This document shows positions 2,691-41,380 of a DNA stretch of 64,000 bases, piece by piece. Every line of letters starts with the position of its first letter. Position 1 is the stretch's first letter. Under the pieces are notes generated by a model. The model had not been told where the DNA came from. It was given only the letters and a program-made list of their open reading frames with translations, and searched no databases. Source of the DNA: Burkholderiaceae bacterium (GTDB taxonomy: Bacteria; Pseudomonadota; Gammaproteobacteria; Burkholderiales; Burkholderiaceae_C); assembly GCA_038125525.1 (NCBI GenBank), contig JAYPEA010000005.1, positions 2,207 to 66,206 of the forward strand, read 5' to 3'. The position numbers and the translations under genes are program-made.

Positions 2691-3650
2691 ATGCAAGAGG
2701 CCGCTGCCCCGCCCCACTGGCGCACCGAGGGCCCCACCTGGCCACACCACGCGCGCAGCCGCTTTGTGGCTGCAGGCGGCATGGCTTGGCACGTGCAGCA
2801 CTGGCCCGAGCCCAATCGGCCCACGCCCAACCCACCCACACCAACGCGCGTGTTGCTGCTGCACGGCACCGGCGGCAGTACCCATTGCTGGCGTGGCGTG
2901 GCGCCGTGGTTGGCGCAACACGCCGAGGTGCTGGCGCTGGACTTACCCGGTCACGGCTTTAGCGCGGCACCGGCTAACCCACAAGGCATGAGCCTGCACG
3001 GCATGGCGCAGGGTGTGGCCGCGCTGCTGGCGGATTGGCCTTACACGCCCGACATGGTGGTGGGCCACTCGGCCGGCTGCGCCGTGGCGGTGCGCATGGC
3101 GCTAAACGGGCAACTGCCCAACACCCGGCTGCTGGTGGGCATTGGCGCGGCGCTGCTGCCCTGGCAAGGGTTGCCAGGCAAATGGTTTGGCCCATTGGCG
3201 CGCGGCCTGGCCAGCCTGGGGCCGGTGCCCAAATGGTTTGCGGGTTGGGCCAACAAGCCCGCCGTGCTGCAAAGCCTGGTGGACAGCACCGGCTCAACCT
3301 TGAGCGACGAATCGTTGGCCTTGTGGCAGCGGCTGGTGGCAAGGCCCGAGCACGCGCAAGCCACGCTGCGCATGATGGCCGAGTGGGACTTGCCCGCCCT
3401 GCAACACGACCTGCCCCACCTGGCCACGCCGCTGTGTTTGCTGCACGGCAGCCGCGACACCACCGTGCGCCCGAGTCAGTCGCACCGCGCCGCACAACAC
3501 GTAACACCCGCCGTGCGCGCGGGCGTACACGAGTGGCCCACGCTGGGGCACTTGGCACCCGAAGAGGCGCCCGAGCAAGTGGCGCAAAGCCTATGGGAGG
3601 TGTGGCAGGGGCGGCAGGGGTGGCAGCACGCCAACGCCCGCGGCGCTTAG
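2691..3650 (+). CDS. bchO: Alpha/beta hydrolase BchO (Mg-chelatase accessory)
   Basis: LLLHGTGGSTH, DLPGHGFS, GHSAG nucleophile elbow; bchI-D-O synteny. Confidence 0.88.
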   Translation: MQEAAAPPHWRTEGPTWPHHARSRFVAAGGMAWHVQHWPEPNRPTPNPPTPTRVLLLHGTGGSTHCWRGVAPWLAQHAEVLALDLPGHGFSAAPANPQGMSLHGMAQGVAALLADWPYTPDMVVGHSAGCAVAVRMALNGQLPNTRLLVGIGAALLPWQGLPGKWFGPLARGLASLGPVPKWFAGWANKPAVLQSLVDSTGSTLSDESLALWQRLVARPEHAQATLRMMAEWDLPALQHDLPHLATPLCLLHGSRDTTVRPSQSHRAAQHVTPAVRAGVHEWPTLGHLAPEEAPEQVAQSLWEVWQGRQGWQHANARGA

Positions 3651-4258
3651 CGCGGCAGCTGGGCCAGACGTTGCTGCACGGTTTGCGCCAGCGGCGCATC
3701 GGCCGGTAGCTGCTGCAGCGCGCGCTGCCAGTGGGCTCGGGCCTGCTGGGTTTGCTGCTGCTCAAGCGCGGCCATCCCCGCCAACACCAAAGCCTGCGCG
3801 TGATCGGGGCTGAGTTGCAGCGCGCGCTCAAGCCACCGCGCGGGTTCGCCCGCGAGCGAGCCGCCGCGCGCCATGGCGGTTACGTCGGCACGCATTACCC
3901 ACCAGTCGGCTTGGCTGGCATCGATGGCCACGGCCTTGGCCAAGGCTTCGGCGGCGTCGGCCCAGCGCTGCATGGCGGCGTACGATTTGGCCAGCATATG
4001 CCAGCCTTGGGCGTTGGTTTGACCGTCTGGGCCTTGCAGCTTGGCCTCTAGGCGTTGCACCATGGCTTGCACCAACGGGGTTTGGGTTACGTCGTTGGGT
4101 GGCGCAGCCTCGGCCGCTGCTGGCGCCGGTTGAGCGGGCGTGGCAACAGGCGGGCCGCCGGCCAGCAACCACGCCGGCTGCCCAAGCACGGCGTAAACGG
4201 CAACGGCCAGCGCGGCCACGCCCAGCCACACCGTCCAGCGTAAACCGCGCTCAGTCAT
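3647..4258 (-). CDS. ccmI: TPR-containing cytochrome c maturation chaperone, CcmI/CycH-like (short form)
   Basis: One N-terminal TM segment, then TPR-like repeats (GWHMLAKSY..., ERALQLSPDHAQALVLAG); ATGA-coupled to ccmH. Confidence 0.7.
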   Translation of the reverse strand: MTERGLRWTVWLGVAALAVAVYAVLGQPAWLLAGGPPVATPAQPAPAAAEAAPPNDVTQTPLVQAMVQRLEAKLQGPDGQTNAQGWHMLAKSYAAMQRWADAAEALAKAVAIDASQADWWVMRADVTAMARGGSLAGEPARWLERALQLSPDHAQALVLAGMAALEQQQTQQARAHWQRALQQLPADAPLAQTVQQRLAQLPR

Positions 4259-4662
4259 GACTTACCCGGCTGCGGCTTGGCCCGCGTGACGCGCCACCAG
4301 CCCAGCGCCGCGATCAGCAACAGCGCGGCTGGCAAAAACCACAGCGGCCACGTGCTGGGCTTGAGCGGCGGGCGGTAGCGCACGAAGTCGCCGTAGCGTT
4401 GCGTCATGTACTCAAGCACCTGCGCCTCGCTTTGGCCTTGGGCCAGCATGCGCCTAACCTGGTTGCGCAAGTCCACGGCCAACGGCGCTTGCGAGGCGGC
4501 AATGGTGTCGTTTTGGCACACCAGGCAACGCAGCTCGCTGGCCACGCGTTGCACCTGGTCCTCTAGCGTGGGGTTGGCACGCGCCAAATCGGCGTACCCC
4601 ATGGCCAAGCTCAACACCACGGCCCGTACGCCCAACCCGCGCATAAGACGCGGCCTAGCCAT
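4255..4662 (-). CDS. ccmH: Cytochrome c-type biogenesis protein CcmH
   Basis: LRCLVCQN motif, YGDFVRYRPP, C-terminal TM helix; start ATG 4662 overlaps the ccmG stop by 8 bp. Confidence 0.92.
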   Translation of the reverse strand: MARPRLMRGLGVRAVVLSLAMGYADLARANPTLEDQVQRVASELRCLVCQNDTIAASQAPLAVDLRNQVRRMLAQGQSEAQVLEYMTQRYGDFVRYRPPLKPSTWPLWFLPAALLLIAALGWWRVTRAKPQPGKS

Positions 4663-5197
4663 GGCGTTGCGCCAACAAGGGCAACAGCGTGGATTGCACC
4701 CATTGCGGCGTGACCACACCGGTGTGTTTGTGCCGCACGCGGCCTTGCGGGTCAATCACGTAGGTCTCGGGCACGCCGTACACGCCTAAGTCTATGCCCA
4801 CGCGGCCGTCCACGTCGTGCCATACGGTGTGGTACGGGTTGCCGCGCTGCGCCAGCCATTGTTGCGCGGCGGGGCTGGCGTCTTTGTAGTTCAGCCCCAC
4901 CAACGTAACGCGCTGGCTTTGCGCCAACTGCAGCAACACCGGATGCTCAACCGCGCACGGCGTGCACCACGAGGCCCACACGTTAAGCACCCACCACTGG
5001 CCGCGCCAGGCCTGTGAGCTAACCGCCGCGGCGGGCTTACCCAACGCAGGCAGCGCAAACGCCGGCAAGGGTTGGCCGATGAGTGGCGAGGGCACCTCGC
5101 GCGGGTTCAGCCTAAGCCCCACGCCCAAGGCCACGCACAGCAAGGCAAAGCCCGCCAGCGCCAGCCAAGGCCCCAGGCGGCGCGGTGCCCGTGTCAT
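4655..5197 (-). CDS. ccmG: Thiol:disulfide interchange protein CcmG/DsbE
   Basis: N-terminal TM anchor, LNVWASWCTPC thioredoxin motif, GVYGVPETY. Confidence 0.95.
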   Translation of the reverse strand: MTRAPRRLGPWLALAGFALLCVALGVGLRLNPREVPSPLIGQPLPAFALPALGKPAAAVSSQAWRGQWWVLNVWASWCTPCAVEHPVLLQLAQSQRVTLVGLNYKDASPAAQQWLAQRGNPYHTVWHDVDGRVGIDLGVYGVPETYVIDPQGRVRHKHTGVVTPQWVQSTLLPLLAQRHG

Positions 5198-7134
5198 GCG
5201 GCCTGCGCCGGCGGCAGCGCCGCGCGCCGGTCAAACGCCGCCATGAGGCCGCCCAAGGCCATCATCAAGCAGCCCAGCCATATCCAGTTCACCAGCGGCT
5301 TGTGGTGCACGCGAAAGGCAAAGGCGTCGTTGCCCAGCGATTCGCCCAGGGCCACGTAAACGTCGCGCCACAGGCTGCGGTCAATCGCCACCTCGGTCAT
5401 GGTTTGGCCGTTGGCCAGGTACAAGCGTCGCTCGGGCTCAAGCGTGGTGACCGTTTGGCCGTGTTGCTGCATGGGCAGACGGGCGCGTACCGCAAAGTAG
5501 TTGGGCCCGGGCGCCATGGTGACGCCGTCAAAGCGCAACTCAACGTTGCCCACGGCAATCGCCTGGCCCGGGCGCAGCCGCACGTCTTGCTCGTGCCCCC
5601 AGGTGGAGACCGCCGCCACGCCAAGGGCGAACACCGCAACACCCAAGTGCGCCAACCACATGCCGCCTTTGGCGCCGCGCAGCGCCCGCCAGCGCGCCGA
5701 GGCGGGCAAACGCTGGCGCCACCACTGCACCATGTGCTGCGCCACGCCAAACGTGAGCCACGCGGCCAAGGCCAACCCGCCCCACGTGGCCCACGACGCG
5801 CCCGGCACCCACCACACCACCGCCGTGGCCGCGCCCACGGCCAACCCGGCCACCAGCATCCACGCGCGCCAAGGCGCCCTGCCAGCGGCGCGGCGCCAAG
5901 CCAGCACCGGGCCGGGCACCATCAGCAACATCACCAGCAGCATCAAGGGCACAAACACGGCTTCAAAGTACGGCGGCCCCACCGACAACTTACCGAGCCC
6001 CATGGCATCAAGCAGCATGGGGTATAGCGTGCCCAGCAGCACACTGGCCGCGGCCACCATGAGCAGCAAGGTTTGGCCAAACAACAAACCCTCGCGCGAC
6101 CAGCCTTGAAAGCTTGCCCCCACGCCCACCGTGGGCGCACGCCAAGCGTAAAGCGCTAGCGCACCGCCCACCACCAGCGCCAAAAAAACCAAAATAAACA
6201 AACCGCGCCCGGGGTCTGAGGCGAACGCGTGCACCGAGCTGAGCACACCCGAGCGCACGATGAACGTGCCAAGCAACGCCAGCGCAAAGCCCAGCAGCGC
6301 CAGCAGCGCCGTCCATAGCCTGAAGCTGCCGCGCGCATCGGCCATGGCCGCGCTGTGCAACAACGCCGTGGCCACCAACCAGGGCATGAACGAGGCGTTT
6401 TCTACCGGGTCCCAAAACCACCAACCACCCCAGCCCAGTTCGTAGTACGCCCAAAAACTGCCCAAGGCAATGCCCACGGTTAAAAACGCCCAAGCCACCA
6501 GCGTCCACGGGCGTATGGCGCGCGCCCAGGCCGAGCCCAACTCGCCTTGCAGCAGCCCGGCCACGGTATAGGCAAAGGCCACCACCAAACCCACGTAACC
6601 CATGTACAGCAGCGGCGGATGCCACACCATGCCGGGGTCTTGCAGCAAGGGATTCATGCCTTGCCCGTCGGCCGGCACCGGCCAGGCGCGCAAAAACGGA
6701 TTGGACGTGAACAGCAAAAACGCCAAAAAGCCCACGCCAATAAGCCCCATTACGCCCAGCACGCGGGCGCGCTGCACGGCGCAAGCGCTGCGCGTGCGCC
6801 ATGCCACGGCCAACGTCCAACCAGCCAGCACCCACACCCACAGCAGCATGGAGCCCTCGTGGTTGCCCCACACCGCGGTGTAGCGGTACACCAGGGGCAG
6901 CGCCGAGTGGGCGTAACCGGCCACCAGCGCAACCGAGAAGTCGGTGTGCACAAACGCCCAGGTGAGCGCGCCAAACGCCAGCGTGACCGTGGCCGCTTGC
7001 ACTGCCACCAGACGCGGGGCAAAGCGCATCCACGCCGCATCGCCGCGCGCCGCACCACCCAAGCCAAGCACGGCCAGCGCCACGCTGGCAGCCAGTGCCA
7101 CGCTGAGGGCCAGATGGCCAAGCTCAACAATCAC
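5194..7134 (-). CDS. ccmF: Heme lyase CcmF
   Basis: MIVELGH start, [34 protein letters not shown] motifs; 646 aa polytopic membrane protein. Confidence 0.97.
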
Positions 7135-7592
7135 GGCTGCGACGCCACCTGCGTGCGCGTGGCTGCACCCGCGGCTTGCAGCGCCGCAGCGGCTTCGGGC
7201 GGCATGTAGTTTTCGTCGTGCTTGGCCAGCACTTGCTGCGCCACAAACCAGCCATCGGCAGCCAACGTGCCTTGCGCCACCACGCCTTTGCCCTCGCGAA
7301 ACAAGTCGGGCAACATACCGGCGTAACGCACCGGCACGTGGTGCGCGCCGTCGGTAACCACAAAACTCACCTGTAAGCCCGAGCCCGAGCCCGCACGCTG
7401 CACGCTGCCTTGCTGCACCAACCCGCCAACACGAAAGGCGCGTGTGGTGGGCGCTTGCTGCGCGGCCACTTGCGTGGGGCTATAAAAAAACACCAAGTTG
7501 CTCTCAAAGGCGCGCAACACCAAGGTGGCTGCCCCGCCCAGTGCCAACAACGCCGCGCCCAACCACAGCATGCGCCAACGCTTGGCCGTCAT
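7131..7592 (-). CDS. ccmE: Heme chaperone CcmE
   Basis: NLVFFYSP, Y[15 protein letters not shown], heme-binding LAKHDENY (HxxxY); ATG 7592 overlaps the ccmD stop. Confidence 0.96.
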
Positions 7593-7765
7593 GACGACTC
7601 CAGCCCGATGTCCCAGGCTTGGTCTTGCGCCGGGCGCTGCAGCGCGCGCCGCTGCCACGCCAGCACCATCCATTCGGCCAGCAGCACCAGCAGCGTCACG
7701 CCCACGGCGCCCCACACGTACCAACCCCGCCCGCCCATGCTGAACCACACTTCCAGCGTGCTCAT
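7589..7765 (-). CDS. ccmD: Heme exporter protein CcmD
   Basis: 58 aa, [13 protein letters not shown] plus TM helix plus basic tail; ATGA-coupled on both sides, between ccmC and ccmE. Confidence 0.85.
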
Positions 7766-8514
7766 GCTTGACTCTCCTGTTCGTTCAGCGCGCGCTGCGC
7801 CCATGTGGTGTGCCGCTCGCGGCGCAACAAAATCAATCGCAACCTCGCCAACACCGCCGCCAGCGTGTAACACCACGCCGCAGCCACCATGATGAGCATG
7901 GCGTGCAACATGGGCTCGGCCATGCGTGAACCGCTGGGCCCAATCGAGGCGCCCTGGTGCAAGGTGTTCCACCACACCACCGAAAAGTAAATCACCGGCA
8001 CATTGATGGCACCCACAATGGCCAACAAACTCGCCGCGCGGTCGGCGCGGTGCGCGTCTTCGATGCTGGCGTGCAGCGCCATGTAGCCCAGGTACAAAAA
8101 CAACAGCAACAACTCAGAGGTTAGGCGCGCGTCCCACACCCACCAGGTGCCCCAGGTGGGTTGGCCCCACAGCGCGCCGGTCCATAGCGCCACAAAGGTC
8201 ATGAGCGCGCCAGTGGGCGCCAAGGCCTGCGCCATCATGTGCGACAGGCGCGACTGCCAAATCAAACCCGCCGCTGCCCAGCCCGCCATGGCCAGGTAAA
8301 TCACCATGGACATCCACGCCGCGGGCACGTGCACAAACACAATGCGGTACACCTCGCCTTGTTGCGCGTCGGTTGGCGCTTGCCACAAGCCCAGGTAAAA
8401 GCCCCAGGCACCCAGCACCACGGCAGCGCCCAGCAACCACGGCTGCAAGGTTTGCGCCAAGCGGTAGCAGCGCGACGGCGCAGCAAAATAAAACCAGTTG
8501 ATACGGGTGCCCAT
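7762..8514 (-). CDS. ccmC: Heme ABC transporter permease CcmC
   Basis: HVPAAW, WWD domain [24 protein letters not shown]. Confidence 0.96.
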
Positions 8515-8516
8515 GC

Positions 8517-9233
8517 CTAGCCCTCCACCGCCATGCGTACCGCGCTGGCCACCGCCCACGGCAAGCCCACCACAGCCAACAACGCCATGGCCGCCAGCAG
8601 CGACAAGTGCGCCGCCACCACCTCGGGTGGCTGCCCCACGGCGCCCGCACCCAGCACCAACAAAGGCACCGTAAGCGGCAGCACCAACAAGGCCAACAAC
8701 ACCGCGCCACTGCGTACGCCCAGCACCAGCGCGGCGGCCACCGCGCCCAGCAAACACAACACCGGCAGCCCCAACAACAAGCCCGCCACCAACACCACCA
8801 GGGCCGAGGCCGAAAGCCCATACGGCACAGCCAACAACGGGCTGAGCGCCACCAGCGGCAGCAAAGCCAACGCGCCGTGCGTGGCCACCTTAACCAACAT
8901 CAACAACGCCAACGGGTGCGGCGACAACACCATTTGCTCCAAGGTGCCGTCTTGCCAATCGTCGTGAAACCAGCGCGGCAACGTGCCCAGCGTGGCCAAC
9001 ACGGCGGCCACCCAAATCACGCCCGGGCCCATGCGCTGCAGCAGCTGCGGCTCAGGCCCCACGGCCAGCGGAAACAACGCCGCCACCACCAAGAAAAAAC
9101 ACCACGCCGCGGCCAAATCGGCGCGTTGGCGCCACTGGCTGGCCACCGTGGCGCGCAACACCACGCCCAGGCTTACCCAGGCGCTGGCTAACTCGCGTGC
9201 GGGGGCCGCGCCCCAGGCCACCGACGCCGTCAT
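8517..9233 (-). CDS. ccmB: Heme exporter permease CcmB
   Basis: FPLAVGPEPQLL, DDWQDGTLEQ, LLVLPLTVPLLVLG; six-TM character; ATG overlaps the ccmA stop. Confidence 0.94.
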   Translation of the reverse strand: MTASVAWGAAPARELASAWVSLGVVLRATVASQWRQRADLAAAWCFFLVVAALFPLAVGPEPQLLQRMGPGVIWVAAVLATLGTLPRWFHDDWQDGTLEQMVLSPHPLALLMLVKVATHGALALLPLVALSPLLAVPYGLSASALVVLVAGLLLGLPVLCLLGAVAAALVLGVRSGAVLLALLVLPLTVPLLVLGAGAVGQPPEVVAAHLSLLAAMALLAVVGLPWAVASAVRMAVEG

Positions 9234-9847
9234 AGTGCCAACCGCCTCAGCCCGGCGTAGGCGTGGCCGGTTTGCCCATGCGCAGTAAACACCACGGCCC
9301 CACCACCGTGCACGTGGCGCTGCATGAGTTGTTGCAACCAACCGGTGGCGCGCTCGTCCAGCGCGACAAAGGGCTCGTCCAGCAGCCACAGCGCTGGCGC
9401 CCCGGGTAAGCCCAACCGGGCCAGCGCCGCCAAGCGGCGTTGCCCCTGCGACAAGCGTCCTACCGGCCGGCCGGCCACGGCGCTCAGGCCGCAGGCGTCC
9501 AAGGTGGCGTCCATGGCCTGCCGGTTAACCGCTTGCCCAGCCAGCGCGCAACCCAGGGTCAAATTGGCACGCGCATCAAGATTAGCTTTTTGTGCCGGCA
9601 CCGGCCCAATCCACGCCATGTGCTCGCGCATGGCGCGCCAGTTGTCACCCAACAACGGCTGGCCATGCCACAGCATGTGCCCCTGACCCAGCGGAAACAA
9701 ACCCGCCAAGGAGCGCAGCAACGTGGTTTTGCCCGCGCCGTTGGCCCCTTCAATCTGCCAGGTTTGCCCGCCCAGCACCTGCAAGCCCAGGCCACGCACC
9801 AACCAGCGGTGGCCGCGTTGCAGACCCACATCAATTAAAGCGAGCAT
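9230..9847 (-). CDS. ccmA: Heme ABC exporter ATP-binding protein CcmA
   Basis: Walker A GANGAGKTT, signature LSQGQRR, Walker B LWLLDEP; heads the ccm operon. Confidence 0.93.
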   Translation of the reverse strand: MLALIDVGLQRGHRWLVRGLGLQVLGGQTWQIEGANGAGKTTLLRSLAGLFPLGQGHMLWHGQPLLGDNWRAMREHMAWIGPVPAQKANLDARANLTLGCALAGQAVNRQAMDATLDACGLSAVAGRPVGRLSQGQRRLAALARLGLPGAPALWLLDEPFVALDERATGWLQQLMQRHVHGGGAVVFTAHGQTGHAYAGLRRLAL

Positions 9848-9862
9848 GGAATCACCGGTCAG

Positions 9863-9880
9863 TGTCAACTAATAGTGACA
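9863..9880. promoter_or_regulatory. PpsR/CrtJ box, 15 bp upstream of the ccmA start
   Basis: TGTCAACTAATAGTGACA, an exact TGT-N12-ACA palindrome. Confidence 0.8.
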
Positions 9881-9918
9881 CTTGTAGCACATTCATATAA
9901 ATGACACAAGCGAACGAC

Positions 9919-9951
9919 TTGACATTCTAAGGTGTCGTGTTAAATTGACAC
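9919..9951. promoter_or_regulatory. Putative overlapping divergent sigma70 promoters (crtE rightward, ccmA leftward)
   Basis: Plus strand: TTGACA(9919-24)-N16-TAAATT(9941-46). Minus strand: GTGTCA(9951-46)-N16-TAGAAT(9929-24). Motif match only. Confidence 0.45.
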
Positions 9952-9976
9952 TACGTGATGTCACACTCTTTTTACA
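9933..9976. promoter_or_regulatory. Tandem PpsR/CrtJ boxes 8 bp apart, upstream of crtE
   Basis: TGTCGTGTTAAATTGACA (9933-9950) and TGTCACACTCTTTTTACA (9959-9976), both exact TGT-N12-ACA with the classic 8-bp spacing. Confidence 0.88.
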
Positions 9977-9997
9977 ACTGTACCGATCGGGGGCCCC

Positions 9998-10888
9998 ATG
10001 GACATGCGCAAACGGATTGAGCAGGCGCTGGCGCGCCAGCTGGCCCCAGCACCCCACCACGGGGCGCCACCCAAGTTGCTGCAGGCCATGCGGCATGCGG
10101 TGTTTCCCGGCGGGGCGCGCATACGGCCCCAGCTTTGCTTGGCGGTGGCGCAGGCCTGCGCCTGCGATGCCCCGGGCTTGGCCTTGGGCGGCGCGGTGGG
10201 GGTCGAGCTGTTGCACTGCGCCTCGTTGGTGCACGACGACATGCCCTGCTTTGATGACGCCGACACCCGACGCGGCCGCCCCAGCGTGCAGCGCCAATAC
10301 GGTGAGCCGCTGGCCCTGCTCACAGGGGATGCCTTGATTGTGCTGGCTTTTGAGGTGCTTACTGACCCCGATGTTGGCCATGCCGAGCGCGCCTTGGCCA
10401 TGCAACGCACGCTGGCGCAAGCGGCCGGCTCGCCCGCGGGTGTGGTGGCTGGTCAGGCCTGGGAGTGCGAAACGGAAGTGGATTTGTCTCAGTACCAGCG
10501 CGCCAAAACCGGGGCGCTATTTGTGGCCGCCACCACGTTGGGCGCGCAAGCCGCCGGCGCCCCGCCCGAGCCCTGGCAAGCGCTGGGTGAGCAGCTGGGC
10601 GAGGCGTATCAGGTGGCCGACGACATTCGCGACGTGGTGGGCGACGCGGCCGAGTTGGGCAAACCGGTGGGCCAAGACCAAGCCCACGACCGGCCCAACG
10701 CGATGCAAACGCTGGGCTTGTCGGGGGCGCTTAAGCGCTTTGAATCGCTCATGCAAGACGCCGTGGCCGCCGTGCCCGCCTGCCCGCAGCAAAGCGCCAT
10801 GCGCGAGCTGGTGCGGCACGAGGCATTGCGCTTGGTGCCACAGCTGTCGATTGCCTGGCGCCACCCCAACCCTCGCGCCACCGCGTAG
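9998..10888 (+). CDS. crtE: Geranylgeranyl diphosphate synthase
   Basis: FPGGARIRPQL, ASLVHDDMPCFDDADTRRG (FARM), QVADDIRD (SARM). Confidence 0.96.
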   Translation: MDMRKRIEQALARQLAPAPHHGAPPKLLQAMRHAVFPGGARIRPQLCLAVAQACACDAPGLALGGAVGVELLHCASLVHDDMPCFDDADTRRGRPSVQRQYGEPLALLTGDALIVLAFEVLTDPDVGHAERALAMQRTLAQAAGSPAGVVAGQAWECETEVDLSQYQRAKTGALFVAATTLGAQAAGAPPEPWQALGEQLGEAYQVADDIRDVVGDAAELGKPVGQDQAHDRPNAMQTLGLSGALKRFESLMQDAVAAVPACPQQSAMRELVRHEALRLVPQLSIAWRHPNPRATA

Positions 10889-19790: not shown

Positions 19791-20816
19791 ATGTTGCAAT
19801 CATCCACACATTGGTTGGCGCGTGGTGCCAAGCTCGCGGCGTTGGCCTCACTGGTCACACTTGCCGCCTGCGAGCGCCCCCCCATGCAAAGCGAACAAAA
19901 CGGCTTTCGTGGCACGGGCATGGTGCAAGTGGTCAACCCACGCGCGCTGGAGGACAAGGTTGCCTTAAACGCTGTGCCCATGGCCACGCCGCAGGCTCCG
20001 GCTGAGGGGCCCAAGGCCTCGCAGATTTACCAAAACGTGCAAGTGCTGGGCGACTTGAGCGTGGGCCAGTTCACCCGCTTAATGGTGGCCATTACCAGCT
20101 GGATTGCACCACAAGAGGGCTGTAACTACTGCCACAACCCGGCCAATTTGGCCGAGGACAGCAAGTACACCAAGGTGGTGTCGCGGCGCATGATTGAGAT
20201 GACGCAAAACATCAACGCCAACTGGAAGACCCACGTGGCCGACACCGGGGTGACGTGCTACACCTGTCACCGGGGCCAGGCGGTGCCGTCTCAGGTTTGG
20301 TTTAAAGCCGACCAAGAGCCCAAAGGCGCAAACTTTATTGGCGACAAAGCTGGGCAAAACAGTCCGGCAGCCAGCGTCAAGTTGGCCTCGTTGCCCAACG
20401 ACCCGTTTACGCCGTTTTTGCTGGGCGATCATGCCATTCGCGTGAATGGCACCACCGCCTTGCCCACGGGCAACCGCAGCTCAATTAAGCAAACCGAGTG
20501 GACGTATGGGTTGATGGTGCACATGTCGGCCTCGCTGGGGGTGAACTGCACGTACTGCCACAACACGCGAGCGTTTTCGAGCTGGGAGGACGCCGCGCCA
20601 CAACGCGTGAAGGCTTGGCACGGCATTCGCATGGCGCGCGACGTGAACAATCAATACATCGCGCCGCTCACCGAGGTGTTTCCGGCCAACCGCAAGGGCG
20701 TGTTGGGCGACTTGGCCAAGGTCAATTGCGCCACCTGCCATCAGGGCGTGAACAAGCCGTTGTTGGGCGCCTCTATGCTTAAAGACTACCCCTCGCTGGC
20801 CAGCGGGGCCAAGTAA
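19791..20816 (+). CDS. pufC: RC-bound tetraheme cytochrome c subunit
   Basis: Lipobox-like LAAC/ERPP; four CxxCH motifs (CNYCH, CYTCH, CTYCH, CATCH). Confidence 0.98.
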   Translation: MLQSSTHWLARGAKLAALASLVTLAACERPPMQSEQNGFRGTGMVQVVNPRALEDKVALNAVPMATPQAPAEGPKASQIYQNVQVLGDLSVGQFTRLMVAITSWIAPQEGCNYCHNPANLAEDSKYTKVVSRRMIEMTQNINANWKTHVADTGVTCYTCHRGQAVPSQVWFKADQEPKGANFIGDKAGQNSPAASVKLASLPNDPFTPFLLGDHAIRVNGTTALPTGNRSSIKQTEWTYGLMVHMSASLGVNCTYCHNTRAFSSWEDAAPQRVKAWHGIRMARDVNNQYIAPLTEVFPANRKGVLGDLAKVNCATCHQGVNKPLLGASMLKDYPSLASGAK

Positions 20817-20817
20817 A

Positions 20818-21567
20818 TTGACCGCCCACCCCTCCCCCACGGCGCCCGGCGACGGCGCACTGTCGGGGGTGGTGGTGGTGCTTTTGGTTGATTTTCATCC
20901 CGATCACCAAAGCTGGGGCTGGCGGCGCCTCATACGAGGCGGCGGTGTGTGGCGCGAGCAAGCCGGGGCAAGCTTTGCCAAGGTCATGGGCAGCGGTCAC
21001 GACGGCGGCTTCACCCTTCGCCCCAGCGCCAGCCATCAAGGCGTGCTGGCGTTGGTGCCCAACCAGGCCAGCGCCGACGCGTTGCTCGACAGTGAATTGG
21101 CGCAAGCCTACCGGCAGCGGGCGCGCCAATGGTGGGCTGGCATCATGACGATTCAATCGGCCCGCGGTAGCTGGGACGGGCACAACTGGCTGCCTTCGCC
21201 CGCGCAAAGTTTTGCCCAGCCGCTGACGCGACAAAAAATGCCGCTGGCGGTGCTCACCCGCGCCAGCATCAGGCCAGCCAAGGCGATGGCGTTTTGGCGT
21301 CATGCGCCGGCGGCGCAGTCTGACTTGCAAGGCAGCAACGGCTGCTTGTTGGCCATGGGGCTGGGCGAGGCGCCGCTGGTGCGGCAGTGTACGTTTAGCC
21401 TGTGGCGTGATACCCAAGCCATGGAGGACTACGCGCAAGACGGCGCGCACCAGCGCGCGGCGGCCGCCGCGTACAAAAACGACTTTTTCTCTGAGTCGCT
21501 GTTCGTGCGGCTGGGCTTGCTGAGCCAGCGCGGCGTATGGCGCCACCCTGCCCCAGCCCATGCCTGA
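20818..21567 (+). CDS. crtA: Spheroidene monooxygenase
   Basis: FAKVMGSG..GGF, LTRASIRP, GLGEAPLVRQCTFSLW, GAHQRA, FFSESLFVR; puf-crtA-D-C synteny. Confidence 0.88.
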   Translation: MTAHPSPTAPGDGALSGVVVVLLVDFHPDHQSWGWRRLIRGGGVWREQAGASFAKVMGSGHDGGFTLRPSASHQGVLALVPNQASADALLDSELAQAYRQRARQWWAGIMTIQSARGSWDGHNWLPSPAQSFAQPLTRQKMPLAVLTRASIRPAKAMAFWRHAPAAQSDLQGSNGCLLAMGLGEAPLVRQCTFSLWRDTQAMEDYAQDGAHQRAAAAAYKNDFFSESLFVRLGLLSQRGVWRHPAPAHA

Positions 21568-23098
21568 GACGCGCGTGGTGGTGGTGGGCGCGGGCGTGGC
21601 TGGCCTAAGCTGCGCGGCCGAGCTGGCGCACGCGGGCATGCGAGTCACGCTGTGCGAATCGGCGCCCACCGTGGGCGGCAAAATGCGCACGCTGCACGTG
21701 GATGGTGCGGCGATTGACGCCGGCCCCACCGTGATGACCATGCGCTGGGTGTTTGACGCGTTGTTTACGCGCTGTGGCCAGCGCTTGGGCGACGCCGTGA
21801 CGCTGCAGCCGCTACCGGTGCTGGCGCGGCACTTTTGGGGCGACGGCAGCACACTGGATTTGTTTGCCGATCGTCGTGCCAGCGAGGACGCCGTGGGCCG
21901 CTTTGCGGGTGCCGCTGAGGCGCGCCGCTTTGCCGCGTTTTGCCGCCAGGCCGCACAGGTGTACCGCGCACTCGAAGGGCCATACATACGCGCAGCCGCA
22001 CCCAGCATGGCGCAACTGACGCAGGCCATGGGCTGGCAAGGCCTAGCCAGCCTCACCCGCATTGGCCCCATGCGCAGCCTCATGAGCAGCTTGCAGCGTC
22101 AGCTGCACCACCCCAAACTGCAGCAATTGTTTGGCCGCTACGCCACGTACTGTGGCTCGTCTCCGTGGCAGGCGCCGGCCACGCTGATGCTGATTGCCGA
22201 AGTGGAAATGCAAGGCGTGTGGGCCGTGCAAGGCGGCATGGCCGCGCTGGCCGAGGCCCTAGCCACCTTGGCCACCAGCCAAGGCGTGGATTTGCGCTGC
22301 GCCACGGCGGTGCAACGCATTGAGCTTACGGGTGGACGCGTCAGCGGCGTACGACTGCAAGACGGCACCCGCCTTGAGGCCGACGCTGTGGTGTTTAACG
22401 GCGACCCCAATGCCCTACGCCAGGGCTTGTTGGGCGAGCCCGCGCGCGCCGCGGTGGAGCGCACGCCACCACCGCGCTCGCTCTCGGCCGTGACGTGGGC
22501 GGTACACACCGCCACGGCCGGCGTGGTGCTGGACAGGCACAACGTTTTTTTTGACGACGACTACGCCAGCGAATTTGAGGCGATTTTTGGCGCTGGGACG
22601 CTGCCGCCCAAACCTACGGTCTACCTGTGTGCCCAAGACCGTGGCGTGGGCAACGACCCAGCCCCAAGCCAAGCCGAACGCGCGCTGTGCCTGGTTAATG
22701 CACCGGCGCGCGGCGACTGGCCCGGCTGGCAGGAGGAGGACTGGCAAACATGCGAAGACCACACCATGAAACTGCTGCAACGCTGTGGCCTGCGCTGGCA
22801 GCCGCAGCCACACCAAATGCAGCGCTGCACACCGGTGACCTTTCACCAACGCTTTGCGGCCTCGGGCGGCGCCCTGTACGGCCAGGCCACGCATGGATGG
22901 ATGGCGGCGTTCAGCCGCCCGGGGGCGAGCAGTCCGATCGAGGGGTTGTTTTTAGCCGGGGGCAGCGTGCACCCGGGCCCGGGGGTGCCCATGGCGGCGC
23001 TGTCGGGACGACAGGCGGCCGCGGCCCTGATGGCCAGCCCCGCTTTGACCAAGCGGTTCCATCCGGTGGCTACCTCTGGTGGTACCTTGACGCACTAA
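21560..23098 (+). CDS. crtD: 1-hydroxycarotenoid 3,4-desaturase
   Basis: VVVGAGVAGL FAD motif, IDAGPTVMTMRWVF, FGRYATYCGSSP, HPGPGVPMAALSG. Confidence 0.95.
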   Translation: MPETRVVVVGAGVAGLSCAAELAHAGMRVTLCESAPTVGGKMRTLHVDGAAIDAGPTVMTMRWVFDALFTRCGQRLGDAVTLQPLPVLARHFWGDGSTLDLFADRRASEDAVGRFAGAAEARRFAAFCRQAAQVYRALEGPYIRAAAPSMAQLTQAMGWQGLASLTRIGPMRSLMSSLQRQLHHPKLQQLFGRYATYCGSSPWQAPATLMLIAEVEMQGVWAVQGGMAALAEALATLATSQGVDLRCATAVQRIELTGGRVSGVRLQDGTRLEADAVVFNGDPNALRQGLLGEPARAAVERTPPPRSLSAVTWAVHTATAGVVLDRHNVFFDDDYASEFEAIFGAGTLPPKPTVYLCAQDRGVGNDPAPSQAERALCLVNAPARGDWPGWQEEDWQTCEDHTMKLLQRCGLRWQPQPHQMQRCTPVTFHQRFAASGGALYGQATHGWMAAFSRPGASSPIEGLFLAGGSVHPGPGVPMAALSGRQAAAALMASPALTKRFHPVATSGGTLTH

Positions 23099-23958
23099 GC
23101 GACTGCGGCGGCTACGGCCTGAGCATCATTGCCTTTGTGGGCAGCGTGTTTTCGCCCTACTACGCGTGGGCGCAACGCCGCGGCGCGCGGCCCGATGCCA
23201 ACGATTACTGCTGCCTCAATGTGTCGCTGTACGGCCCGGCGCGCCGCTGGACCATGACCGAGCGCGGCGCGCGCTGGTGCGGGCGCGACGCCACGCGCTT
23301 TGAGTTGGGCCCCAGTGCGCTGCAATGGCACGGCGACCATTTGTCGATTGACATCAACGAGCGTGCCGTGCCGCTGCCGTGGCCGGTGCGCGGCCAAGTA
23401 CGGGTGTACCCCAAGCAGTTGTTTACGCTGAGCACACCCCTAGACGTACGCGGCGCGCACCGCTGGGGCCCCTTGGCGCCCAGCGCCCGCGTGGAGGTGG
23501 CGCTTGAGCAGCCAGCGCTGCGCTGGCAAGGGCAAGGCTACCTTGACAGCAACGAGGGCGACGAGCCGATTACGCAGGGCTTTGAGGCTTGGGACTGGTC
23601 ACGCTGCCAGCTGCGCGACGGCAGCAGCGCAGTGATTTACGACACCGAACCCTGGCTGGCCGATGGCAACGTATTGGCGCTGCGGTTTTTGCCCAACGGG
23701 CAGGTGGAGCCCTTTGCGCCACCGCCGCAGCAGCGCATGCGGCGCACCGCCTGGTGGATTGAGCGGCGCTTGCGCAGCGATTCAGCGGTGACGGTACGCG
23801 ACCAACTGGAGGACACGCCGTTTTATCAACGCGCGGTGGTGCAAAGCCAACTGCTGGGCGAGCCGGTCACGAGTTTTCACGAAACGCTGTATGTGCCGCG
23901 GCTGCGCTCATCGGTGGTGCAGGCCATGCTGCCTTGGCGCATGCCGCGCCGCTCGTGA
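22897..23958 (+). CDS. crtC: Carotenoid 1,2-hydratase
   Basis: PRFDQAVPSGGYLWWYLDALSD, FVGSVFSPYY, YLDSNEGDEP, WDWSR, EDTPFY. The start is uncertain; the N-terminus overlaps the crtD 3' end. Confidence 0.92.
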   Translation: MDGGVQPPGGEQSDRGVVFSRGQRAPGPGGAHGGAVGTTGGRGPDGQPRFDQAVPSGGYLWWYLDALSDCGGYGLSIIAFVGSVFSPYYAWAQRRGARPDANDYCCLNVSLYGPARRWTMTERGARWCGRDATRFELGPSALQWHGDHLSIDINERAVPLPWPVRGQVRVYPKQLFTLSTPLDVRGAHRWGPLAPSARVEVALEQPALRWQGQGYLDSNEGDEPITQGFEAWDWSRCQLRDGSSAVIYDTEPWLADGNVLALRFLPNGQVEPFAPPPQQRMRRTAWWIERRLRSDSAVTVRDQLEDTPFYQRAVVQSQLLGEPVTSFHETLYVPRLRSSVVQAMLPWRMPRRS

Positions 23959-24962
23959 GCCAAGCGCTCAAACAACTCAAGCATCCACGCCACACGCTGC
24001 TCGGGGTTGCGCTTGATACGCAAGCCCGCTGGCAGCGCATCGGGCAAATTGGGTGGAACCGTGTCCAGCAAAAACTGCACCGCCGCCGGCGCCTGGGGGG
24101 GCTCAACTGCCGCGCTTGAAGTGCTTTGCGCGTCAATCCACGCGCGGGTAAGCAGCCAGGCTTTGCGCGCGCGCGGCACCACGGCGCGGCGCGAGACCGA
24201 ATCCAAGCCGTGGCGCCTGACTTCGGCGCCGATTTCGGCGTACACCCAGCGCGCTGCCCAAATGGCTTGCCGGCAGTCCGGCGGCAGCGCCGCAATGCCG
24301 CTGCTGGCGCGGGCATAAAGTCGGTTGGCTTCGTCGAGCAAGCGCGCGGTGACGCGCTGCAACGGCGCCGAGGTATGCGTGCTGGCCAGCACGTCGGTGG
24401 CGCACAGCCCCTCTTGGGCTAGCCACTGCTCGGGCAAGTACACGCGCCCGCGTGCGGCGTCTTCGCCGACATCGCGCGCGATGTTGGTGAGCTGCATGGC
24501 CAGGCCCAGCTCAGCGGCGCGTGCCAGCGTGGCTTGGCTGCGCGCGCCCATCAGCCACGCCATCATGGTGCCCACACTGCCGGCCACACGCGCGGCGTAG
24601 GCGTGCACATCGTGCAGCGTGTCGTAGCGTCGGCCAGCGGCGTCCCAGGCAAAGCCCTCGAGTAAGGCATCGAGCCACGCACGCGGCAAGTCGTGGTGCT
24701 TGACCACCAACGCCAGCGCCTGGTCCTCCACAAAGTGGCGCGGCGTTTGCGCGTAAATGGCATCCAGCCTTTGCTGCAACAGCGTCAGCGCCAAGCGGCA
24801 GTCTTCGCCCTCGTCTACCAAATCATCGGCCACGCGGCAAAACGCGTACAACACCACCGCCGCGCTGCGCACCCGCGGCGGCAACCAACGGCTGGCGGCA
24901 AAAAAGGTTTTGGAGCCCCCGCGCATGAGCTCGAGGCAGGCCTGTAACTCGGGGGCCATCAT
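23877..24962 (-). CDS. crtB: Phytoene synthase
   Basis: GSKTFFAAS, LYAFCRVADDLVD, ARVAGSVG, AMQLTNIARDVGEDA; ATGA-coupled to crtI. Confidence 0.96.
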   Translation of the reverse strand: MMAPELQACLELMRGGSKTFFAASRWLPPRVRSAAVVLYAFCRVADDLVDEGEDCRLALTLLQQRLDAIYAQTPRHFVEDQALALVVKHHDLPRAWLDALLEGFAWDAAGRRYDTLHDVHAYAARVAGSVGTMMAWLMGARSQATLARAAELGLAMQLTNIARDVGEDAARGRVYLPEQWLAQEGLCATDVLASTHTSAPLQRVTARLLDEANRLYARASSGIAALPPDCRQAIWAARWVYAEIGAEVRRHGLDSVSRRAVVPRARKAWLLTRAWIDAQSTSSAAVEPPQAPAAVQFLLDTVPPNLPDALPAGLRIKRNPEQRVAWMLELFERLAHERRGMRQGSMACTTDERSRGTYSVS

Positions 24963-26515
24963 GCGGTAGCCCGCGCTTGCGCCTGTTGCCAAGCCTGTAC
25001 CGTGGGCACCACGGTTTGCAGGGCTTTAGCGGACATTAACACCCCCGGCACCCCGGCCCCGGGATGCGTGGCCGCGCCAACCAAGTACAGTCCTTGCACG
25101 TCCTCGCTGCGGTTGTGCGGCCTAAACCACGCACTTTGCAACAGCAGCGGCTCAAGGCCAAACCCCGCGCCTTTGTAGCTGGCCAAGCGGTCTTGAAAGT
25201 CCAGCGGCGTCATGAGGCGCGAGGTGGTGAGCCGAGCGCCCAAGCCGGGCAACACGGTGGCCTCGAGTCGCGCCTGAATCGCTTGCCGATATGTCTCGGC
25301 ATGGGTGCGCCAGTCGGTGCCGCTGTCTAGGTGTGGCACCGGCGACAACGCGTAAAACGTGTCGCACCCCGGTGGCGCCAGTGAGGGGTCGGTGGCGGTT
25401 GGGCGGTGCAGGTACAGGCTGAAATCGTCAGCCAAGTGCTTGCGCTTAAAAATATCGCGCAGCAGCCCGCGATAACGCGGCCCCAACACCAGCATGTGGT
25501 GTGGCACATCTTCGTAGCGGCGGTCGCAACCAAAGTACCAAACAAACAAGCCCATCGAGTAACGCCCGCGCTCGATGCGGCTGTCGCTCCAGTGGCGCCG
25601 GTGTTCGGGTCGAACCAGGTGCTTGTACGTCCAGGCCGAGTCGGCGTTGCTCACCACAATATCGGCGCTAAGCCGCTCGCCATTGGCCAGCCGTACCCCC
25701 GTGGCGCGACCGTCCTGCACCGTGATTTCGGCCACCCGCGCGTGGTAGCGAATCGGCACGCCGCGCTGCTGCAGCAAGTTCACCATACCGCGCACCAAGG
25801 CGCCGGTGCCGCCCATAACAGAGTGCACGCCCCAGCGCCGCTCAAGCGAGTGAATCAGCGCATACGCGCTGGTGACAGAAAACGGGTTGCCGCCAATGAG
25901 CAGGGTATGAAAGCTAAACGCAATGCGTAACTGCGGGTGCCGCAGGTGCTTGGCCACCACCCCATAGATGGTGCGCCACGCCTGCATGCGTGCAAAGCCG
26001 GGTAAGGCCTTAACCAAGTCAATCACGCGGTCAAACGCAATCGACCCCATGCCCTCAAAACCAATACGCCGGCAACGCTCGGCCACCTCAATCAAACGCC
26101 GAAACCCCTTGACGTCGCGCTTGTCAAACGTGGCAATTTGCCGCTCCATTTGCTCGTCGTTGGCGTTGTAGTCAAATACCCGCCCGTCGTCAAAACGAAT
26201 ACGGTAAAACGGGTCCATCAAACGCAAGTCCACGTCGTCTTGCAAGCGTCGGCCGCACAAGCGCCACAACTCTTCGAGCAAAAACGGCGCGGTGATGATG
26301 GTGGGGCCGGCGTCAAAGGTGTAGCCGTCTTGGGCAAACACGTAGGCACGTCCGCCGGGGCCGTCGAGTTGCTCGAGTACCTGCACCTCGTAGCCCATGA
26401 CGCTAAGCCGTATGGCCGCAGCCAAACCGCCAAAGCCGCTGCCAATCACCAGTGCACGCGGCACCGGCGTGCGCTCGCCACCTGCGCGCGACTCATCGGT
26501 GTAGTAAGCGTTCAT
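24959..26515 (-). CDS. crtI: Phytoene desaturase
   Basis: VIGSGFGGLAAAIRL, FDAGPTIITAP, THPGAGVPGVLMSAK; ATGA-coupled to puhE. Confidence 0.96.
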   Translation of the reverse strand: MNAYYTDESRAGGERTPVPRALVIGSGFGGLAAAIRLSVMGYEVQVLEQLDGPGGRAYVFAQDGYTFDAGPTIITAPFLLEELWRLCGRRLQDDVDLRLMDPFYRIRFDDGRVFDYNANDEQMERQIATFDKRDVKGFRRLIEVAERCRRIGFEGMGSIAFDRVIDLVKALPGFARMQAWRTIYGVVAKHLRHPQLRIAFSFHTLLIGGNPFSVTSAYALIHSLERRWGVHSVMGGTGALVRGMVNLLQQRGVPIRYHARVAEITVQDGRATGVRLANGERLSADIVVSNADSAWTYKHLVRPEHRRHWSDSRIERGRYSMGLFVWYFGCDRRYEDVPHHMLVLGPRYRGLLRDIFKRKHLADDFSLYLHRPTATDPSLAPPGCDTFYALSPVPHLDSGTDWRTHAETYRQAIQARLEATVLPGLGARLTTSRLMTPLDFQDRLASYKGAGFGLEPLLLQSAWFRPHNRSEDVQGLYLVGAATHPGAGVPGVLMSAKALQTVVPTVQAWQQAQARATA

Positions 26516-27312
26516 CCGCCCTCCGCCTTGGCTACGGCCAGCGGCTGCGTGCGCCCCATGGCCCAACCCCACAGCCGCTGCACCGGTGCGGCCAGCACCA
26601 TCAACACGTGCTCCACAATCGCCAACCCAAGCAACGACGCCAACAGCGTCCAGCCCGGCGTAACCTCAATGGCCGCAGCCTGCGCCTGCCATATGAGCCA
26701 CGCCAAGGTGGCCCCAGCCAAGCCCACCGAAACATAAAAAAACCAACTCGGCGGGCTGCTGCGAAAGTAACTACCCAAGTACACCAAGTGCGGCGGCAAA
26801 AACTGTGCACCCACTTGCGGCACGCCTAAAAACAAATTGATCTTGGCGCTAAAACGCATGCACCACAACACCGCAAAGGTGCACAGCGCGGTGTGATTGG
26901 GCAAGCCCTGCTGCAGTACCATCAGCACGGCAAAGTTAAGCACCAGCGCCACTTCGTGCCACGCCACGGCCGCCACGCCCTGGCGCCAACGCTGCCACCC
27001 CGCGGCGTGGCGCTCTTGCGGCTGGCGGCGCGGGCCGGTGAGCCAGCCGGTTAAAAACATCAACTCGTGCCATGCCCACATCACCATGGCGGCGCCAAAA
27101 CCAAGGTAAGCGTGGGCCGTGCCCACCGCTTGCATGGAGTGCCAGGCCAGCACCAGCGAGGCCAAGGCCAGCGCCGTAAGCCATAAATTGCTGCGACCAA
27201 AGGTGGGCTGGGCGCGTCGCACCAGCCACAAAATCACGCCTGTGCCCAGCCACCAGCTCGCCACCGCGAACAGTAAGGCCAGCCAGGGCGATTGCCACAC
27301 GGCACCGCTCAT
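26512..27312 (-). CDS. puhE: Photosynthetic complex assembly protein PuhE
   Basis: WWLGTGVILWL, WAWHELMFLTG, RFSAKINLFLGVP, LAIVEH. Confidence 0.9.
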   Translation of the reverse strand: MSGAVWQSPWLALLFAVASWWLGTGVILWLVRRAQPTFGRSNLWLTALALASLVLAWHSMQAVGTAHAYLGFGAAMVMWAWHELMFLTGWLTGPRRQPQERHAAGWQRWRQGVAAVAWHEVALVLNFAVLMVLQQGLPNHTALCTFAVLWCMRFSAKINLFLGVPQVGAQFLPPHLVYLGSYFRSSPPSWFFYVSVGLAGATLAWLIWQAQAAAIEVTPGWTLLASLLGLAIVEHVLMVLAAPVQRLWGWAMGRTQPLAVAKAEGG

Positions 27313-40562: not shown

Positions 40563-41366
40563 ATGCCCACCTCACGACCATCGCACGATGCGGGCAGCGG
40601 GCAATCCCACGTCCCTAGGGAGTTACTGCGTCAAGCCATCACGCACCGCGTGGTGCCGGCGTTGCTGGGGCGGGCGGCCAATGGTGACAAGGCCCGCGTC
40701 CTACCCAGCGAGTCCTCGGTGTTGGCTCTGGCCCAGCACATCTTGGGTGAATCCATCGAGCCCGCCCGCCAACTGATGCGCGGGCAGCTAAGCGCGGGCG
40801 TCAGCACAGAAGACCTCTACCTGCACCTGTTGGCGCCAGCTGCTCGCGTACTGGGGCGACACTGGGAGAGTGACGCCTGCGACTTTGTTGAGGTGACGTG
40901 GGGCATGGGCCAACTGCACCAGCTGCTGCGCGAGCACCCGCTAAGCCGCCCCGCTGCTGGCACCGCCGCTGTGGGTCAGGTGCTGCTGTGTCCCTTACCG
41001 GGCGAGCAACACACCTTTGGCTTGGCCATGGTGGCCGAGTTTTTGCTGCAAGCCGGCTGGCTGGTGCAACGCCAGCAGTTTGCCAGTCAGGCCGAGGCTG
41101 TGGTGTGGATCAAACAACACCACGTGCACGTGGCGGCCTTGAGCGTGGGCCACACCGGCAGCGCCGCCGCTTTGGCCGAACTCACCCGTGCCCTGCGCCG
41201 GGCCAGTGCCAACCCCAGCGTGGCCCTGCTCGCCGGCGGCGCCGGCCTAAACGCCAGCCAAACACCCGCAACCACTCTGGGGCTGGACGCCGTAGTCGAA
41301 GCCGCACCCGACGTCCCGCGTTTGGCGGCACAATACCTCCCACCTAACCGAATTGTCAAAAGTTAA
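40563..41366 (+). CDS. aerR: Cobalamin-binding antirepressor AerR/PpaA
   Basis: RHWESDACDF, B12-binding EQHTFG (ExHxxG); directly upstream of ppsR. Confidence 0.88.
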   Translation: MPTSRPSHDAGSGQSHVPRELLRQAITHRVVPALLGRAANGDKARVLPSESSVLALAQHILGESIEPARQLMRGQLSAGVSTEDLYLHLLAPAARVLGRHWESDACDFVEVTWGMGQLHQLLREHPLSRPAAGTAAVGQVLLCPLPGEQHTFGLAMVAEFLLQAGWLVQRQQFASQAEAVVWIKQHHVHVAALSVGHTGSAAALAELTRALRRASANPSVALLAGGAGLNASQTPATTLGLDAVVEAAPDVPRLAAQYLPPNRIVKS

Positions 41367-41380
41367 TTGTTTTGCCAGAC

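Follow-up and report, generated by a model that had tools for sequence, protein, structure and literature searches.

Why should a complete operon for cytochrome c maturation lie within a photosynthesis gene cluster, and does it answer to the regulator of the pigment genes around it? The question is raised by a 64,000-nucleotide stretch (the window) from the genome of a freshwater betaproteobacterium of the Burkholderiaceae, in which the heme-attachment operon ccmABCDEFGHI (System I) and crtE diverge from a shared spacer of 150 bp that holds three palindromes of the type associated with PpsR, known from textbooks as the master repressor of genes for pigments and antennae. It is probable, though well short of certain, that the ccm operon is under PpsR by way of an operator of its own, so that heme attachment would be switched on with the photosystem. 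This reading is strengthened because the genome encodes a second maturation system and because the operator is conserved across genera at the promoter of ccmA. The wiring of ccm into the PpsR regulon is thus supported as far as sequence comparison can go.

Putative operators and promoters in the ccmA-crtE spacer

The intergenic spacer (9848-9997) separates the ccmA ATG (9847, minus strand) from the crtE start (9998, plus strand) and has about 44% G+C, versus about 66% for the window. A motif scan reproduces the three exact TGT-N12-ACA palindromes that an earlier note on this DNA had described, and the coordinates bear out its 8 bp between boxes 2 and 3 as well as its 15 nt from box 1 to the ccmA start codon. 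The features of the spacer and of the transcription units that flank it are as follows.

3647..9847, minus strand: System I operon ccmABCDEFGHI, complete, between bchO and crtE
9230..9847, minus strand: ccmA, heme exporter ATPase, first gene of the operon (TIGR01189, 148 bits, cut-off 131.6)
9863..9880: box 1, ccm-proximal PpsR-type palindrome TGTCA-N8-TGACA, exact match; putative operator of the ccmA promoter (PccmA), about -6 to +12
9881..9886, minus strand: putative PccmA -10, TACAAG after TGC (extended -10), suggested by conservation
9904..9909, minus strand: putative PccmA -35, TTGTGT, 17 nt from the -10
9919..9946, plus strand: predicted crtE promoter (PcrtE), -35 TTGACA (9919-24), 16-nt spacer, -10 TAAATT (9941-46), TG upstream; 10/12 consensus
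9924..9951, minus strand: promoter proposed in the earlier note, GTGTCA (9951-46), 16 nt, TAGAAT (9929-24); 9/12 consensus
9933..9950: box 2, PpsR-type palindrome, exact match; overlaps the PcrtE -10
9959..9976: box 3, PpsR-type palindrome, exact match; about +6 to +23 of the predicted crtE transcript
9998..10888, plus strand: crtE, geranylgeranyl diphosphate synthase (PF00348, 156 bits), first gene of crtEF-bchCXYZ-puf

Boxes 1 and 2 fit TGTC(A/G)-N8-TGACA, and box 3 ends in TTACA; boxes 1 and 2 are separated by 52 bp between their edges and by 70 bp between their centres. The boxes overlap the promoters predicted by a consensus scan plus the conserved element TTGTGT-17-TAYAAG. Thus, box 2 lies over the PcrtE -10 and box 3 just past the PcrtE start, while on the minus strand TTGTGT (9909..9904), 17 nt and TACAAG (9886..9881) are followed by box 1 without a gap. 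Placing PccmA here would put the ccmA transcription start near 9874, inside box 1, which is the position of a repressor. Among the marks of a PpsR operator, the palindrome, a paired or distant partner site, a cognate regulator in the genome and conservation in orthologous positions were found for this spacer.

The analysis shows the sequence elements, how they are conserved, the genes present and which of them co-occur; from these we infer the binding of PpsR, the repression that it would exert, the transcription starts and the physiological role. The spacer would hold two back-to-back promoters of the sigma-70 type, both under PpsR operators: boxes 2 and 3, a pair of the classical kind with an 8-bp gap, overlap PcrtE, and box 1 follows PccmA at once and would cover its start, at about 9874. 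Repression by PpsR would then silence ccmABCDEFGHI along with the pigment and reaction-centre genes, and its release would free all of them together; the B12 protein AerR, whose gene lies 30 kb downstream, would modulate PpsR. The pair proposed to act on the boxes is encoded in the window:

40563-41366, plus strand: aerR, B12-binding (PF02310, 36.5 bits)
41372-42823, plus strand: ppsR (TIGR02040, 398 bits)

The motif recurs at promoters of bacteriochlorophyll genes, where the bchC pair, spaced by 8 bp just like boxes 2 and 3, is an internal reference for the motif in this genome:

12106-23 and 12132-49: site pair at the bchC promoter, one mismatch and exact, respectively, 8 bp apart
40386 and 40402: sites at bchF/aerR, one mismatch each
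42837: box ahead of bchG
C5:2099-2116 (contig coordinates, outside the window, 107 nt before its start): perfect TGTCA-N8-TGACA just upstream of bchI

Because the bchC, bchG, bchI and bchF/aerR promoters bear the same motif, the spacer boxes match in type the sites at this genome's classical PpsR targets. Their earlier assignment as PpsR-type therefore holds up at the level of sequence, with ppsR and aerR in the window, the motif shared with bch promoters and the sites conserved across genera. The exact bchC box ends 1 nt ahead of the annotated bchC ATG, which makes the true start, or the leader, of that gene questionable. The crtD-crtC / crtB-crtI block has been relocated to 21560-26572, without the usual divergent partners of these crt genes, and the gap of about 740 bp that separates it from pufC (20817-21559) contains no exact PpsR box.

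Two further readings of the spacer were discarded. One was a plus-strand promoter, GTGACA-15-TATAAA, whose -35 would be formed by the right half of box 1; it was dropped, as it is not conserved in the relative G007 (G-numbers label genomes of the family, G000 being that of the window). An RNA element was rejected after an Rfam search of the spacer gave no match above threshold; the sole match was a sub-threshold CRISPR-repeat inside crtE.

Box 1 as a probable operator of ccmA

The arrangement was followed through a family-wide sample of 200 further genomes (199 from other genera and G003 from the window's own genus), 201 with G000. It is shared by the close relatives G008 (98% CcmA identity) and G007 (77%), and the idea that it is a peculiarity of three near-identical metagenome-assembled genomes (MAGs) was rejected, because five further genera (G024, G126, G209, G180 and G191) have ccmF at 14-19 kb from pufM; the distance is 31 kb in G235 and 42 kb in G003. 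Three layouts were found. In G000, G007, G008, G209, G180, G329 and G191, ccmA diverges from crtE, as it does in G024 with a 2.8-kb insert. In G126, G235, G343 and probably G121, ccmA faces crtI and the divergent pair crtE and crtD is intact. In G003 and G136, ccm lies a few kb from bchIDO. The place opposite crtE that ccm fills in the window belongs to crtD in relatives: the retention of crtE facing crtD in G126 and G235, where ccmA faces crtI, agrees with the earlier proposal that ccm has taken the divergent slot.

In a tree of CcmC and CcmF, the proteins of G000, G008, G180, G209, G235, G126, G024, G191 and G107 form one clade with a support of 100 in the Shimodaira-Hasegawa-like approximate likelihood ratio test (SH-aLRT), and those of G003 and G136 fall outside it. 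Judged from this tree, cluster-linked ccm is mostly one lineage, together with at least one independent linkage event. A record labelled 'Candidatus Fonsibacter lacus' (L034, RFXW01000002.1) also bears a photosynthesis cluster of the Burkholderiaceae type that includes ccm, its CcmF being 94% identical; this MAG looks wrongly labelled or wrongly binned.

Alignment of the spacer from five genomes of three genera gives 49% identity overall, with the invariant columns concentrated in box 1 and the adjoining CTTRTAGCA, in ACACAA, in TTGACA and in box 2. TTGACA and the -10 of PcrtE within box 2 are invariant in this alignment, and box 2 is nearly invariant across the three genera, its inner spacer included. 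Box 3 is exact in G007, G008 and G209 and degenerate in G180 and G329. The earlier note had suggested looking for box 1 (9863-80) in orthologous regions, and its half-sites proved invariant in G007, G008, G209, G180 and G329. The hexamer abutting it is TACAAG in G000, G007 and G008, and TATAAG with an upstream TG in G209, G180, G329, G235 and G343; TTGTGT stands at exactly 17 nt in G007, G180, G329 and G235 as well, and TTGTTC replaces it in G209.

At least five genera have the composite of box and -10 ahead of ccmA, among them genomes whose divergent partner is crtI (G235, G343). In a sixth genus (G136), where ccmA has no divergent partner from the cluster, a box lies between a terminator and the gene; since the G136 operon belongs to a different Ccm clade, this box looks like an independent acquisition. 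When 401 genomes of the family were searched for TAYAAG directly followed by TGTCA-N8-TGACA, seven matches were obtained, six of them upstream of ccmA, and none with a reversed control. That such a box might be a general trait of ccmA upstream regions was rejected: no promoter-proximal box was present at the 78 ccm loci without crtE or bch neighbours (6-kb flank, six cluster-protein probes) or at the 17 ccm loci of phototrophs more than 6 kb from cluster genes.

Two of the loci have features of their own. In G136 (L133:5770-6420) a gene for a high-potential iron-sulfur protein (HiPIP), co-directional with ccmA and ending in a strong intrinsic terminator, lies directly upstream of ccmA, and the PpsR-type box between terminator and ccmA reads TGTCAATCTATCGTTACA. 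In G126 (L143:1380-1540) a TACAAG-plus-box composite with a second, imperfect box occurs beside the 3' end of bchO, 46 kb from ccmA.

Other explanations of these elements fare less well. It is highly improbable that the palindromes arose by chance in a spacer rich in A+T, or that some other regulator binds them. The bare TGT-N12-ACA motif is not rare, with no enrichment across the window (10 observed versus 12.7 expected) and 292 copies in the 1.87-Mb assembly; yet when the spacer was shuffled by mononucleotide 200,000 times, three boxes were reached in only 4 cases, and first-order Markov simulation of it gave three in 50 of 50,000 runs, and the strict form TGTNA-N8-TNACA occurs six times in the assembly, four of them in the photosynthesis cluster and two of these in the spacer. 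The sites are also conserved across genera in a spacer that has otherwise diverged. Sites for CRP have their 5-mers separated by N6 and those for FNR by N4, unlike the N8 found here. A more substantial alternative is that box 1 is only an auxiliary operator of crtE, PpsR looping from it to boxes 2 and 3 and so tightening the repression of crtE, while ccm is constitutive. The palindromes for CrtJ, as PpsR is called in Rhodobacter capsulatus, cooperate at separations of 76 bp (crtI) and 240 bp (puc), as quoted in PMC4452267, which the 70 bp from box 1 to box 2 would suit, and all the proximal ccmA boxes observed are at ccm operons linked to the cluster. This explanation is nevertheless unlikely. 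The centre of box 1 is 70, 85 or 166 bp from the crtE boxes in different genomes, distances that have no constant phase, so that looping through a fixed helical phasing of boxes 1 and 2 was rejected, whereas its distance from TAYAAG is always 0. The box is kept opposite crtI and, in G136, with no divergent partner at all, and crtE retains boxes of its own in genomes where ccm is not adjacent. Since the box travels with ccmA whatever the divergent neighbour, it seems to belong to ccm, and its role as an operator of ccmA's own promoter, not only a helper of crtE, is supported by this comparative evidence.

Two further alternatives concern the ccmA promoter and the sign of control. The earlier note suggested interlocked promoters, with TAGAAT overlapping the crtE -35. 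Were ccmA transcribed from TAGAAT, the true operator of ccm would be box 2, and box 1 would act as a roadblock within a leader of 70 nt. Both hexamers, TTGACA and TAGAAT, are indeed found by the scan, and TAGAAT has the proper final T, but it is not conserved: it reads GAGAAT in G209 and even in the close relative G007, and is absent in G180 and G329, while the nearer TTGTGT-17-TAYAAG is conserved. TAGAAT is for that reason not favoured, and it is quite unlikely to be the source of the ccm transcript; the conserved promoter fits ccmA better, and this detail of the earlier description was probably wrong. Alternatively, PpsR, possibly with AerR, might activate ccmA from box 1 instead of repressing it. 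CrtJ activates ccoNOQP in R. capsulatus (PMC5362033), and a weak -35 and -10 could need such help. Activation from this site is very unlikely, because a site right after the -10 and spanning the start is the usual position of a repressor, and activator sites are normally upstream of or at the -35. Repression of ccmA through box 1 is the reading that we prefer.

System II and a proposed division of labour in heme attachment

The genome also encodes System II, with ResB (421 bits) and CcsA side by side on contig C33 in open frames without stops, and repression of ccm would therefore not leave the cell without heme attachment. Among the 201 genomes, CcmF occurs in 81, pufL/M in 35 and ResB in 155; System I is present in 27 of the 35 phototrophs versus 54 of the 166 non-phototrophs, figures that are descriptive only, the genomes being interrelated. 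Of the ten genomes with a proximal ccmA box, nine proved to have System II (G000, G007, G209, G180, G329, G235, G343, G126 and G136), and ResB was not found in G008 (90% complete), which bears the same boxes. The ccm operons of the main Ccm clade that have no proximal box (G024, G191 and G107) are all in genomes with System I only. This pattern of co-occurrence fits the notion that control by PpsR would be tolerable only when Ccm is relieved of housekeeping.

The operon itself has the full gene set and the usual functional motifs. Pfam and NCBIfam matches cover CcmB, C, E, F, G, H and I, with a CcmD-like open reading frame between ccmC and ccmE, and the translation of ccmA has the Walker A, signature and Walker B motifs. 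The remaining translations have WWD in CcmC and CcmF, HDENY in CcmE, CxxC in CcmG and LRCxxC in CcmH. Its CcmF is the single CcmF of the genome, and this is the only System I there. On one side lie bchI-bchD-bchO, and on the other crtE-crtF-bchCXYZ-pufBALMC, with crtF, bchC and bchX downstream of crtE. At the far end of this string is the likely client of the cluster-resident Ccm:

19791..20816, plus strand: pufC, tetraheme reaction-centre cytochrome (PF02276, 489 bits)

With four CxxCH motifs, pufC is the only frame of the window to have more than one, and a single CxxCH occurs in each of three others. Cytochrome c1 is encoded in the genome, and the cbb3-oxidase subunit CcoO (FixO, PF02433) was not found in the 95.7%-complete assembly. 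The c-type cytochrome set of this small genome may thus be very short, in which case PufC would account for a large share of the demand for heme c.

The division of labour would then be one in which System II serves housekeeping cytochromes such as c1, and the System I of the cluster is an accessory line that provides extra capacity for heme attachment during synthesis of the four-heme PufC. A possible reason for using System I here is that it works at lower heme levels. The 'dedicated role' that the earlier note had envisaged for ccm stands in part: the second system in the genome argues against a housekeeping role, but strictly dedicated is too strong a term. Five System II-only phototrophs of the family all keep pufC, judged by genome content only, which suggests that Ccm is a booster and in principle no absolute requirement for PufC.

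That last observation is one of several that weigh against the explanation given here. The -10 sequence TACAAG or TATAAG is without the highly conserved final T, the -35 is weak, and the AAG ahead of box 1 could instead belong to the contact between protein and DNA; a consensus scan prefers the other minus-strand promoter, GTGTCA-16-TAGAAT. CrtJ/PpsR can also activate genes (PMC5362033), which makes the sign of control uncertain. Few independent events underlie the correlation of the box with System II, the box-less G024, G191 and G107 counting as one because they form one subclade. Finally, G003 has both systems and no box at ccmA, and its ccm genes follow dxs-hemA.

The G003 locus is of interest in its own right. 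In this isolate-like genome (L121:15000-20000 and L122:1-1200) a string dxs-hemA-ccmABC diverges from hemE-bchIDO at the edge of the photosynthesis cluster, so that genes for isoprenoid precursors, heme precursors and heme attachment appear as one transcription unit; the ccmA there is without a TGT-N12-ACA box.

A broader proposal can be put forward tentatively, as an idea that we hold possible but somewhat on the doubtful side. Cytochrome c maturation would be a regulated step of photosystem assembly whose genes travel with the cluster. The photosynthesis cluster of this Burkholderiaceae clade would be self-sufficient for PufC when heme is scarce or diverted to bacteriochlorophyll, through a System I of its own controlled directly by PpsR and AerR. 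The ccmA operator would be kept only together with a housekeeping System II, which relieves Ccm of constitutive service, and would have had two or more origins, one in the main clade and one in G136. The comparative pattern of box and System II makes the idea directly testable in cultured relatives.

If PpsR does control ccm, the photosynthesis regulon would extend from pigments and apoproteins to the finishing of the reaction-centre cytochrome, and the retention of System I alongside System II in some betaproteobacteria, an open question in cytochrome biogenesis, would have a concrete explanation. A photosynthesis cluster could then carry accessory modules and be more self-contained than it would be otherwise, a point that bears on the spread of phototrophy between lineages. 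What would be new is a class of target genes for a known kind of regulation by PpsR, and an accessory module of the photosynthesis cluster.

Relation to known systems

Purified PpsR of Rubrivivax gelatinosus, a related betaproteobacterium, binds paired TGT-N12-ACA sites that are 8 bp (crtI) or 9 bp (pucB) apart, the former spaced like boxes 2 and 3 (PMC4452267). The spacer resembles the operators of R. capsulatus (bchC, crtA-crtI, puc) and R. gelatinosus (crtI, pucB) in having TGT-N12-ACA as an 8-bp pair, which here lies over a predicted core promoter. As in purple bacteria, aerR (ppaA) precedes ppsR inside the cluster (PMC4452267 and PMC5362033). PpsR/CrtJ operators of purple bacteria likewise include one more, distant site within a divergent spacer; unlike in those, the gene behind the third site here starts a cytochrome c maturation operon and is not a pigment or antenna gene. 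The main text of a study of R. capsulatus CrtJ by chromatin immunoprecipitation sequencing (ChIP-seq) and RNA sequencing (RNA-seq) gives photosystem, cco and cyd targets and no ccm gene (PMC5362033). A literature search found no paper describing ccm inside a photosynthesis cluster, and ccm is not mentioned in the Rhodoferax antarcticus genome paper, the Roseateles depolymerans transcriptome paper or a review of aerobic anoxygenic phototrophs.

In Escherichia coli the ccm genes are downstream of the nap operon. They are expressed only anaerobically (PMC10937671). To that extent E. coli offers a parallel, as its System I is not constitutive and follows the condition under which the client proteins are produced. 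Unlike the present case, the E. coli system has a different regulator and signal and no second maturation system.

The nearest precedent found is the ccm linked to mtrCAB. Complete ccmA-I operons occur as passengers beside mtrCAB clusters in Burkholderiales of the Comamonadaceae type, several of which have System II elsewhere in the genome (Baker et al. 2022, PMC8805035). Evidence summarised in the same paper indicates that System I works at lower levels of heme or iron and can hold a heme reservoir (PMC8805035). In both cases a complete System I operon is attached to a cluster whose product needs multiheme cytochromes. The client in the one is the Mtr conduit, with no regulator site described; in the other, System I has joined a photosynthesis cluster and stands behind a predicted operator of its master repressor.
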